64,000 nt of DNA from Clostridia bacterium. GTDB lineage: Bacteria; Bacillota; Clostridia; Christensenellales; UBA1242. Location of the stretch: the NCBI GenBank assembly GCA_045655005.1, contig JAZOOJ010000007.1, positions 162,170 to 226,169 on the forward strand, in the 5' to 3' direction. This document shows, piece by piece, positions 51,001 through 54,000 of the stretch. Position 1 is the first letter of the stretch; every line of letters starts with the position of its first letter. Made by a program: the position numbers.

Positions 51001-54000
51001 CGTCTAAACAATTTACAAAATGTTGGAAAAAATCAAATGAAGATGTTTTTTCTCGTGATACCCATAATGTGCCTTTTTCAGTCTTACCCATTTTAACACC
51101 TTCTGCATTTGTTAAAAGCGGACAAGTTAAACCCATCATTAATTGTCTTTCTTTACCATCTGCAAAGTTCATTTTTCTTGATAAATCAACTCCTGCAACA
51201 ATGTTTCCCCATTGATCAGAGCCACCTATTTGAAGAATACAACCAAAGTTATTGTTTAAATGGATAAAATCAAATGCCTGCATTAACATGTAACCCATTT
51301 CCATAAAGGTTAATCCACCCTTTTCAAGTCTATTCTTGTATAGATCATTTCTTAGCATTTCATTTACATTGAAATGAACGCCAACCTGACGTAAAAAGTC
51401 AATGTATGTTGCTTGTTTTAGCCAATCAGCATTATCTACAACCAATGCTGGATTTTCACCGTCTGTACGGACAAATCTTTTGATTATACTGCTAATTTCC
51501 CTGGCATTTCTTGCAACTTCTTCCTTTGAAAGCATTTTTCTCATATCAGTTTTGTTTGTTGGATCTCCAATAAGAGCTGTTGCGCCACCAACTAGAACAA
51601 TACATTTGTGGCCACAATCTTGTAATATTCTAGCCATTTGAAGTCCAAAAAAGTGTCCAATATGCAAATCATCTGCTGTGGGGTCTATCCCAATGTAAAA
51701 TGTTATAGGTCCCTGTTTTAATAGTTTTTTAGTCTCTTCTAAATGTGTAGTTTGAAATACAAAACCACGATTTTCTAATTGCTCAAAAGCATTATCTTTA
51801 AACATAATTATTTCTCCTTTTATATTATATCATATTTTATTTATTCTTCCAAATCAATTCTCACTTCGCCCATAAGGGCGTATGTTTTTCTAAACCAATT
51901 CATAATTCCTTTTCCTTTTAAAACAAAAAATCTGCCATAAGTTTACACTTGTGACAGATTTTCCCTTTAAAATAAAAACTGCCACATAGCGATATTGCTA
52001 TATGACAGATGTTTTTGATATTCTTAATTATTTGCAACACAAAACTTCTACATATAGCAACTAAATGTAGTAGTAATAATATGAGTTTAAAGCAAATAAA
52101 TTTTTCATAATATCTCCTTGATATGCAACTATTATAGCCAATTTTGATGTAAAAGTCAATACCTTATTTTTAACTGTATTAACTTCATGTGTTTTTATAC
52201 TATTTTATATAAATGGGACTTTTTGATACTTTTATATATTATAAATAATGTATAATTTCGTGGTTCTACTTAGATGGATCTTGTTCAACCATAAAAATTC
52301 CAAAGTCGAACGGGCTTGGGATTTTTTTATTGACAAATGTATTATTTGCAACTATAATATACTCACCATAAAGAGTGCGTAAGGGACTGCCCCATTGACC
52401 GCACAGCAACCTACACTGAAAGTTTGGTGCAAGGTGCTAAAGGCTGTATGATGGTTTTATATCGATTTTTTAAGGAAACCATCTAACGATGGTTTTTTCA
52501 TTTGTATTCTTTGTGGAATTTAATCATTTTGGGAGAGTTTTTATGAAAGCAACACAAAGAAAACAAATTTTAGTAAGACTTGAGAACAAGAAATCTGGCG
52601 AGAAATTTATTAAATTCCTAGAAGAAAAAGGCTTCTCAAACGTTCAAAATTTAACATTCGACAACCTTAAAGTAAAAGTTTTGGTTGTAGATTCCGATGT
52701 TTTTTTCAGCACAAACGTAACCTGTCTTGCAAGTCTTTCATCTTGCGGAATCACACCTATCAGAATAGAAGAATTTAAGCAAAACTTTTAAACTTTTTGT
52801 ATTTAGGTAAAAACGTATTATAAAAACGCAAAGATTTTTTCTTTGCGTTTTGTTTTTTAATTATTCACTTCTAAGTGCAACCACAGGGTCCTTTTTAGAG
52901 GCACTGCGCGATGGAATTAGCCCTGAAATCAGTGTTAAGCCCATACTTATTAATATCAATACAAATGCCGCAGAAAGTGGCAAAAAAGCCTTCAAATTTG
53001 CAAGCCCCGTCAAGGCTTTAAGTATTATATTAATTGGTATGCATAAAAGATATGTCGCAACGACTCCAAACAAGCCCGATGTGAAACCAATTATTAAAGT
53101 TTCGGCATTAAACATTCTTGCAACGTCTTTTTTCGATGCTCCTAATGCCCTTAATATTCCAATCTCTTTTACTCTTTCTTGAACAGAAATTAGGGTTATT
53201 ACACCTATCATAATTGAAGACACTATTAATGAAATTGACACAAAGGCAATCAACACATAAGAAATTGCGTTAATTATTGTTGTAATTGAAGACATCATTA
53301 ATCCCAAATAATCAACATAAGAAATCTTCTTATCTTCCCCAACACCTGAGTTATATTCGTTAATTGCTTCAATAATTAAATCTTTGTCTTCAAATGACGC
53401 AACATAAAGATTAATCGTTCTTGGAGCGTCCAAATTTAAGCAACCAAGTTTAACCAAAACATCTTCGTAGGTATTCTCAGAAAACTCGGTAACATTATCA
53501 TAATATCTTTCAAACTCGGTATCTGTTGCACTACTTAGCAATGTGTTCAGTTCTGTAACTAAACCATCTATATCATCTTTCAACGCAGATTCGTAAGTTT
53601 TACTGATTGTGTCTTTATGGTCCTTAATTACATCTTCTTGACATAATCCAAATGCAATACCCATAATTTGCTCATCGGTCATTTCTTTGAAATAACCCGA
53701 AATAACTATACTATCAACACTCATCTTTTCAGCAATTTCATCGATAATAAACGCTTCTTGAGCTTCTCTTGTAGGATAGTTAGACATTAAATACATTCCT
53801 GTCTTTTGAGCCAATTCTTCTGGCGACAACAAAGATTTAATCGCAATAAAAGTTTCAACTTTCTTTTTGTCGCTTAGATTTTCAACATAAGTTTTAAATG
53901 CTGTTGCTTTTTGTTCAGCAGTCAAAACCCCTGTATTTGATTTAAATGGTTTGCCTGTAAGCAAGTCAACGGTCGTACTTCCCTTTTGAGCCTTAACAGC

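Follow-up and report, generated by a model that had tools for sequence, protein, structure and literature searches.

The gene for tyrosyl-tRNA synthetase (TyrRS), tyrS, lies on the minus strand of a 64-kb stretch of the genome of a Clostridia bacterium (contig JAZOOJ010000007.1); this stretch is called the window below, and its positions are used for all coordinates unless another locus is named. The tyrS open reading frame (ORF; 50570..51805) encodes a 411-amino acid (aa) protein with the Pfam PF00579, SYY_C-terminal and S4 domains, and its product scores 395 bits against the NCBIfam TIGR00234 tyrS equivalog (cut-off 113.8). Upstream of the gene, on the same strand, is a 320-nt leader with a small ORF (sORF) that ends in a run of Tyr codons and is followed by two tandem terminators. 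This leader likely acts as a ribosome-mediated transcription attenuator through which the availability of charged tRNA-Tyr is sensed.

The leader transcript would be driven by the promoter P1 (TTGACT-17-TATAAT, 52131..52159), which matches the consensus at 11 of 12 positions. A Shine-Dalgarno sequence, AAGGAG (52114..52119), is located 5 nt ahead of the ATG of the first sORF, sORF1 (52061..52108). The 15 codons and stop of sORF1 (ATG AAA AAT TTA TTT GCT TTA AAC TCA TAT TAT TAC TAC TAC ATT TAG) encode the leader peptide MKNLFALNSYYYYYI, and its five consecutive Tyr codons, TAT TAT TAC TAC TAC (52067..52081), are the putative regulatory codons; all of these elements were read directly from the DNA. 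The last Tyr codons together with the Ile and stop codons make up segment 1 (ACTACTACATTTAG, 52061..52074), the partner of the 3´ part of segment 2 (TTGCTATATGTAGAAGTTTT, 52041..52060), with the segment 1 core ACTACTACAT pairing with ATGTAGAAGT at 9 of 10 positions. This helix is predicted to serve as an anti-antiterminator or pause hairpin. Segment 2, which follows directly after the stop codon, has segment 3 (AAAACATCTGTCATATAGCAA, 51995..52015) as its alternative partner, and TTGCTATATG is the exact reverse complement of CATATAGCAA. Segment 3 is both the 3´ strand of an extended antiterminator and the 5´ arm of the terminator T1 (51969..52008), found with a terminator scan, in which segments 3 and 4 form a stem of 12 bp, two of them G-U (CTGTCATATAGC/GCTATGTGGCAG, 52008-51979), with a 6-nt loop and a following TTTTTATTTT. 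The second terminator, T2 (51920..51959), consists of the hairpin ATCTGTCACAAG...CTTATGGCAGAT (51959-51930) and the TTTTTGTTTT downstream of it.

A first-pass annotation of the window had listed the promoter, the AAGGAG and the 15-codon ORF with its five Tyr codons, and all were recovered at the minus-strand coordinates it gave. The 9/10 pairing of segments 1 and 2, the perfect complement overlapping segment 2, the 12-bp terminator and the second hairpin with its U-run, also described there, are all present. Three further features had been missed. One is a second promoter, P2 (TTGGAA-17-TATAAT, 51824..51852), which matches 10 of 12 consensus positions, has in addition the TG of an extended -10, and ends 18 nt before the tyrS ATG. 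Another is a second sORF, sORF2 (MNWFRKTYALMGEVRIDLEE, 51841..51903), which starts right after T2 with its own ribosome binding site (RBS), AAAAGGAAAAGGAA (~51906-51919), and contains a Tyr codon with the GC hairpin CGCCC-TTAT-GGGCG (51867..51880) immediately 3´ of it. The last is complementarity between the two terminators, in that segment 4, the 3´ arm of T1 (UGUGGCAG), could form a helix with segment 5, the 5´ arm of T2 (CUGUCACA).

When the whole 64-kb window was scanned, sORF1 was the sole RBS-preceded short ORF in which one residue is repeated more than three times in a row, and no other convincing leader-peptide-like sORF was found in the window. The leader is also far more stable than shuffled sequences (z = -6.3). 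This uniqueness and folding stability, together with conservation in dozens of orthologous loci, argue that the leader is not a chance feature. Ten large ORFs of the window were scanned for further synthetase genes and none was found. A tRNA-Tyr gene beside the leader was also considered and is absent; the adjoining tRNAs are Ser, Gly, Arg and others, varying by locus.

Conservation of the leader and the search for a T-box

A protein-based scan of one genome per species yielded 46 tyrS loci, mostly from metagenome-assembled genomes (MAGs) labelled Candidatus Onthoplasma (placed in Christensenellales by NCBI), Caccosoma, Caccovivens, Christensenellales or Clostridia. An sORF1 with a Tyr run was found upstream of tyrS in 34 genome loci, the TyrS proteins of which are 73-95% identical to that of the window. 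The leaders of 29 loci were aligned with that of the window, and counts out of 30 refer to this alignment; the total of 34 includes five further loci (L031, L044, L024, L043 and L030). The peptide consensus of the aligned leaders is M-K-[NK]-L-F-A-x-[TN]-S-Y-Y-Y-Y-Y-[IK]-stop, with Tyr encoded in 28-30 of the 30 leaders at each aligned position of the run. Outside the run, F5 (28/30), A6 (24/30) and S9 (25/30) are moderately conserved. The N-terminal codons differ synonymously as well as non-synonymously (for example MKNLFA, MIKTFA, MEKFFS and MNKLFI), and the length of the sORF varies by whole codons only, to 14, 15 or 17. A GGAG-type RBS, the ATG, the reading frame and the stop position are all kept in the related loci. 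In 29 of the 30 loci, a P1-equivalent promoter (at least 9 of 12 consensus positions) has the end of its -10 box 17-32 nt ahead of the sORF ATG, and the stop codon is separated from GCTATATG of segment 2 by 0-4 nt, again in 29/30. A U-run follows both T1 and T2 across the aligned loci.

Variants of the Tyr run are YHYYY, YYYCY, YYCYY (L031, L044), YYGYY (L024, L043) and YYWWTY (L030). In L030 (~2660-2710 of that locus), two Trp codons stand in place of Tyr inside the run of the leader peptide, MTTILTSNLYYWWTY, and the 1:2 pairing is preserved. These Trp codons could reflect mixed Tyr/Trp sensing, or drift that is tolerated since the first two Tyr codons suffice.

The genes upstream of the leader vary, with a divergent S-adenosylmethionine (SAM) riboswitch in the window and tRNA-Ser or tRNA-Gly in other loci. 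These differences between loci indicate that the leader travels with tyrS, independent of the wider neighbourhood. A metagenome scan carried out with the nucleotide motif alone, tyrS not being used, gave 11 hits. Five were true leaders, and all four of those with downstream sequence precede tyrS (65-79% identity). The remaining 6/11, considered as possible cases of the motif before genes other than tyrS, proved to be chance palindromes.

P2 is recognizable in most loci as a conserved block, (T)TTGAA-16/17-TGnTAwAAT, 16-24 nt ahead of the tyrS ATG, and is absent or unclear in L014, L032 and L056. L014 and L056 have a minimal layout of sORF, single terminator and tyrS with no evident P2, and tyrS in these two loci would therefore have to be read from P1. 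From the conserved promoter block, P2 probably gives basal tyrS expression, with the attenuator adding an inducible component and modulating rather than solely controlling the gene. Such leader-independent basal expression makes sense for an essential gene located behind two strong terminators.

For sORF2, the RBS and ATG are conserved and the Tyr codon lies 6, 7 or 8 codons from the ATG in every case; its C-terminus and stop position are not conserved. TAY is followed by the GC hairpin, in the general form CGCCC-N4-10-GGGCG, in 39/39 loci having the region, and the wobble base of the Tyr codon forms the outermost pair of the stem (C-G in 28, U-G in 5, U-A in 5 and C-A in 1). RNAalifold gave no consensus structure between T2 and tyrS, where this short hairpin alone is conserved. 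The arrangement suggests that sORF2 and its hairpin could provide a second Tyr checkpoint, could stabilize the read-through mRNA by means of a stalled ribosome or a 5´ hairpin, or could act as an antisense terminator. In the plus-strand direction, TATGTTTTTC comes after the hairpin (51867-51890), which scores as an intrinsic terminator and could stop antisense transcription from the tyrS/P2 region. Two other roles were considered. Reinitiation by a ribosome passing from sORF2 to tyrS, an idea taken from PMC4833913, is not favoured given that the sORF2 stop and the tyrS ATG are 20 to >100 nt apart. The GC inverted repeat as a protein operator for P2 was also set aside, as the variable loop of 4-10 nt argues for a hairpin over a DNA site of fixed spacing. 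Two loci (L004 and L034) have an additional ORF of ~75 aa (MKKNVEITLTKELVIPRDVF...) between the P2-like box region and tyrS, and an attenuator there would govern a two-gene unit.

The T-box mechanism was defined on tyrS, with the B. subtilis gene as its founding example, and T-box control is considered the standard mode of synthetase-gene regulation in Firmicutes. The claim of the first-pass annotation that no T-box is present in the leader held in the Rfam search, at the gathering score and at E<=10. No T-box was found in the window at the gathering score, none over 51700-52500 even at E<=10, and none in 40 related tyrS loci. Since the defining features of the RF00230 covariance model (stem I with its specifier loop, the T-box sequence and the antiterminator bulge) were looked for and are lacking in the leader, the element is not a T-box. 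There was also no match over the leader to any Rfam leader family (Trp, His, Phe, Leu, Thr, Leu/phe and others). Its best Rfam scores were noise, 22.5 bits for a microRNA family and 22.2 bits for PyrD_leader (gathering score 47), and the leader is unrelated in sequence to any described leader family. The negative T-box result is meaningful, as the same tool recovered a T-box in a positive control, L038 (2-205; 70.8 bits, E = 1.7e-13), upstream of a more distant tyrS (56% identity to that of the window). This score lies below the Rfam gathering score of 93, in a leader that begins at the extreme edge of its contig. The L038 T-box has a UAC (Tyr) specifier, with the specifier region GAAUUACA and the core AGGUGGUACCACG.

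Alternative helices and the position of the ribosome

The number of paired cells in the 30-leader alignment was counted for two conformations of the leader, with shuffles and with partners slid by 1-3 columns as controls. The termination conformation (1:2, T1 and T2) was 94.7% paired, with double changes in 8 pairs compared with 1.6 in the shuffled alignments, and the slid controls were 17-53% paired. For the read-through conformation (extended 2:3 and 4:5), the value was likewise 94.7%, with double changes in 6 pairs compared with 1.2 after shuffling and slid controls of 32-55%. Taken singly, the 1:2 helix was 94.7% paired, T1 93.9% (three pairs with double changes), T2 97.6% (double changes in 5/7 pairs), the extended 2:3 antiterminator, of 18 pairs, 94%, and the 4:5 helix linking T1 with T2, 96.2%. 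Joint changes are found in individual loci: segments 1 and 2 are co-changed in L030 (CTGGTGGACATAT with ATATGTTCCAG), segments 2 and 3 change together in L014, and the T1 and T2 stems are altered in parallel in L017 (CTACCA/TGGTAG) and L022 (CCGyCA/GGCGG). As signals from an alignment, such covariation events appear few but informative. Both the conserved Tyr run and the compensatory changes expected of orthologous tyrS leaders are thus seen in the alignment.

Folding was then constrained by masking a 28-nt ribosome footprint, an assumed size, at successive A-site positions. For the window leader as free RNA, the minimum-energy fold was the 1:2 hairpin together with T1. With the footprint at Tyr1-3, the extended antiterminator became the minimum-energy structure, and with the footprint at Tyr4, Tyr5, Ile or the stop codon, T1 returned. 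A co-transcriptional snapshot was also folded, with the RNA ending just past segment 3, before the 3´ arm of T1 exists. All leaders formed the antiterminator in this snapshot when the ribosome was placed at Tyr1, Tyr2 or Tyr3 (30/30), and none did so when it was placed at the stop codon (0/30). The 1:2 / 2:3 / 3:4 switching proposed in the first-pass annotation is borne out by these folds, in which terminator and antiterminator flip with the position of the ribosome, and the modelled outcome matches the classical trpL logic. The folds also suggest that the first three Tyr codons are the effective sensors and that the last two serve mainly as part of segment 1.

The complementarity between segments 4 and 5 points to a possible further step. 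In L030 and L032, the T2 stem is changed, yet a complement of segment 4 persists, reaching into the T2 loop. The 4:5 pairing is the minimum-energy structure in L009 and L022, and is not in the sequence of the window. We hypothesized a domino in which 2:3 pairing frees segment 4 and segment 4 captures segment 5 before segment 6 is made, such that one stalled ribosome would defeat both terminators. This idea is based on the complementarity, the parallel changes in the two stems and kinetics, and we put the odds that it is correct at about even.

Proposed attenuation and the alternatives to it

The leader combines a 5´ sORF with an RBS and ATG, a cluster of codons cognate to the downstream synthetase, an intrinsic terminator, an antiterminator mutually exclusive with that terminator, and an anti-antiterminator that overlaps the codons. 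With the assumed footprint size, its geometry is such that a stall frees segment 2 and a ribosome at the stop codon occludes it. We favour the reading, with a probability of roughly 0.8, that the leader is a leader-peptide transcription attenuator that responds to how much charged tRNA-Tyr is available and tunes transcription into tyrS accordingly. We infer the following course of events from this arrangement. Strong, constitutive transcription from P1 would give a leader RNA that opens with a 15-codon ORF, well initiated and with five Tyr codons at its end. When Tyr-tRNA is ample, the ribosome would reach the stop codon and cover segment 2, leaving segment 3 free for segment 4, and T1 would form; a polymerase escaping T1 would be caught by the similar T2. 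When Tyr-tRNA is scarce, the ribosome would stall on the first Tyr codons and cover segment 1 only, which would allow segments 2 and 3 to form the extended antiterminator before segment 4 is transcribed, blocking T1. The freed segment 4 might then pair with segment 5 and disable T2 as well, and the polymerase would continue via sORF2 into tyrS. P2 probably supplies basal tyrS transcription, to which the attenuated path from P1 would add the inducible part. The first-pass annotation had tyrS controlled by the attenuator. The comparison and the folds support a role for the attenuator in that control, but the conserved P2 makes it probable that the leader modulates tyrS rather than being its sole control. 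A more elaborate version, a multi-stage Tyr-tRNA sensor with the two-terminator domino, the Tyr codon and hairpin of sORF2 as a second checkpoint acting on mRNA fate or translation, and P1 layered on a basal P2, is a tentative extension that we regard as rather unlikely in its entirety.

Several observations weigh against attenuation of tyrS by the leader. The conserved P2 could express tyrS without the leader, and T1 and T2 could merely end an independent transcript. A tyrS 76% identical to that of the window, in L028, keeps P2 and the GC hairpin and is without the sORF and without both terminators, which means that the attenuator is dispensable in at least one lineage. The very high sequence conservation of the leaders leaves few independent covariation events, and such conservation is expected of segments that must each fit two pairing partners. 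When the full leader was folded at equilibrium, only ~1/3 to 1/2 of the loci favoured the antiterminator over T1, and the window's own T2 remains folded even with T1 disrupted. As a consequence, the model depends on co-transcriptional kinetics. Finally, the 4:5 complementarity could be a by-product of T2 duplicating T1.

The points concerning P2 are also what would be expected if P1, sORF1 and the two terminators were an independent small gene, for a Tyr-rich micropeptide or a small RNA, beside a tyrS transcribed solely from P2. The -35 and extended -10 block of P2 is conserved directly upstream of the tyrS RBS, the upstream unit ends in two efficient-looking tandem terminators, there is some N-terminal conservation of the peptide (the LFA motif), and L028 expresses tyrS without the unit. 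We nevertheless consider an independent gene improbable: the unit is found solely upstream of tyrS, in ~38 loci with otherwise differing neighbours, and the amino acid of its codon run is that of the synthetase encoded downstream. A plain terminator would have no need for a segment 2 complementary to both segments 1 and 3, with co-changes, L014 and L056 have a single terminator and no recognizable P2, and the folds with a positioned ribosome yield exact attenuator logic.

Two further explanations keep the switch and change the signal. The hairpins might be switched by a trans-acting factor, whether TyrRS, another RNA-binding protein or uncharged tRNA-Tyr on a non-canonical element, with the sORF being incidental. 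Alternative terminators and antiterminators are typical of protein- and tRNA-dependent systems too, the leader exposes UAC triplets, and the E. coli thrS synthetase autoregulates through its leader RNA (mentioned in PMC2965389). An incidental sORF is hard to reconcile with the conservation of its RBS, ATG, frame and stop and with length shifts by whole codons (14, 15, 17). The abutment of the stop codon on segment 2 (0-4 nt in 29/30 loci) is relevant only if the sORF is translated. With no T-box core or model match even at E<=10, and no conserved unpaired motif left over in the 30-leader alignment as a site for a protein or tRNA, we judge a trans-acting factor very improbable, slightly more so than a separate small gene. 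Regulatory residues are next to the stop codon in TnaC. The key residues of sORF1 similarly adjoin its stop codon, and F5, A6 and S9 are moderately conserved outside the Tyr run, as might be seen for an arrest peptide of the TnaC type, in which the nascent chain would detect a small molecule, free tyrosine for instance, and stall upon binding it. Five identical codons in a row are instead the signature of sensors of tRNA charging, and the N-terminal residues differ across lineages. Moreover, a ribosome stalled on the stop codon or close to it would occlude segment 2 and promote termination, giving only a tyrosine-induced repression that ribosome run-through already provides. An arrest peptide is the least probable of the three. 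Attenuation by a ribosome translating sORF1 thus remains the reading we prefer.

Neighbouring features and relation to known systems

Divergent from the leader, on the plus strand, is a complete SAM-I riboswitch unit (52330-52851). It comprises a promoter of consensus sequence (TTGACA-17-TATAAT, 52330-52358), an aptamer scoring 49.5 bits (52363-52454) and a terminator (52473-52498). Next comes an 82-aa ORF (ATG at 52543, end at 52791) without a Pfam match, which has a terminator of its own (52823-52851) and is predicted to encode a SAM-regulated small protein. On the other side of tyrS, an 87-aa ORF (50265-50528, minus strand) begins 41 nt past the tyrS stop codon, with no obvious terminator between them and no Pfam match. 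It was considered as a conserved operon partner of tyrS and rejected, as it is not kept beside tyrS in other loci. A tRNA-Met(CAT) gene is located downstream of tyrS on the opposite strand (49952-50028, plus strand). Elsewhere in the window are a tRNA-Leu(GAG) gene (765-848, minus strand) and a transfer-messenger RNA (tmRNA; 1653-2016, minus strand) with the tag peptide ANYNNNLAYAA, and two minus-strand ORFs of 898 aa (26553-29249) and 545 aa (29681-31318) for which no Pfam family was found at E<=1e-5.

Among the related loci, the region upstream of tyrS in L028 (~2700-3000) has different alternative hairpins, TATCGGCAAT, ATTGCCGATA and ACGGCAAT, followed by a U-run. Neither an obvious Tyr-rich sORF nor a T-box match was found in this region, and the hairpin set may represent another, undescribed leader. 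In L036, a Candidatus Onthoplasma MAG, the 5´ part of an OLE (ornate large extremophilic) RNA, cut by the end of the locus, was detected ~2.7 kb downstream of tyrS (6957-7227, 134 bits).

Leader peptides have been described in several comparable settings. In Firmicutes, the Bacillus cereus group has a His leader ahead of hisZ and of a hisS paralogue (PMC2965389), further His leaders are found in Peptostreptococcaceae and Erysipelotrichales (PMC9413887), and in S. aureus the genes for branched-chain amino acid synthesis have a Leu-rich attenuator peptide (PMC5794164). As of 2005, classical attenuation was not known for any synthetase gene of Firmicutes (PMC1262725); the same study predicted trpS and leuS attenuators in Streptomyces and cited pheM-pheST as the proteobacterial model. 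In the literature searched, the coverage of which was incomplete, neither a leader peptide with Tyr codons nor attenuation of tyrS was found to be reported.

The pheM-pheST leader of E. coli is like the tyrS leader in having a short ORF rich in cognate codons, alternative hairpins and terminator read-through before a synthetase gene. It differs in its amino acid (Phe) and phylum and has no sequence or Rfam relation to the leader described here, which in addition has tandem terminators, sORF2 and a proximal promoter. The trpL, hisL and pheL leaders share the 1:2, 2:3, 3:4 logic, the overlap of the codons with segment 1 and a stop codon near segment 2, but control biosynthetic operons, whereas the regulated gene here is a synthetase gene. 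The tyrS T-box (RF00230) has the same gene, signal (tRNA-Tyr charging) and output (leader antitermination). It binds tRNA directly, whereas sensing here would be indirect, via the translating ribosome, with no specifier loop or T-box core. The Firmicutes His leaders are classical leader peptides in the usual place of a T-box and were predicted, as here, by comparative genomics. They concern another amino acid and are unrelated in sequence, and no tandem-terminator cascade or second sORF has been described for them; the B. cereus hisS case is also a paralogue, whereas the matched tyrS carries the leader across the whole clade. Similarly, the Streptomyces trpS and leuS leaders are leader-peptide attenuators before Gram-positive synthetase genes, but in Actinobacteria with high-GC genomes and for other amino acids. 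The tyrS leader is best filed as a Tyr-specific addition to the classical leader-peptide attenuator class, with the domino and sORF2 as possible variant features. The first-pass annotation had suggested that a leader-peptide solution for tyrS in a low-GC lineage would be a notable mechanistic replacement. That the replacement at tyrS is notable is well supported, as is the qualification that it is not unprecedented, the mechanism being a textbook one with precedents in the phylum for leader peptides replacing T-boxes.

The leader also matters for annotation, as gene finders do not call such sORFs and the leader is without an Rfam family. It offers compact parts for testing and engineering, including a 15-codon sensor, a possible two-terminator domino and an sORF2 with a Tyr codon and hairpin. 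With it, tyrosine joins the amino acids with predicted leader-peptide attenuation. For a clade of uncultured gut Clostridia, Candidatus Onthoplasma and its relatives, tyrS appears to be governed by a translating ribosome, and a distant relative retains the T-box, providing a clean natural example of one RNA sensing mechanism swapped for another. If the multi-stage sensor is true, it would mean that the T-box has been replaced completely, and by independent evolution, at its founding gene throughout this clade.

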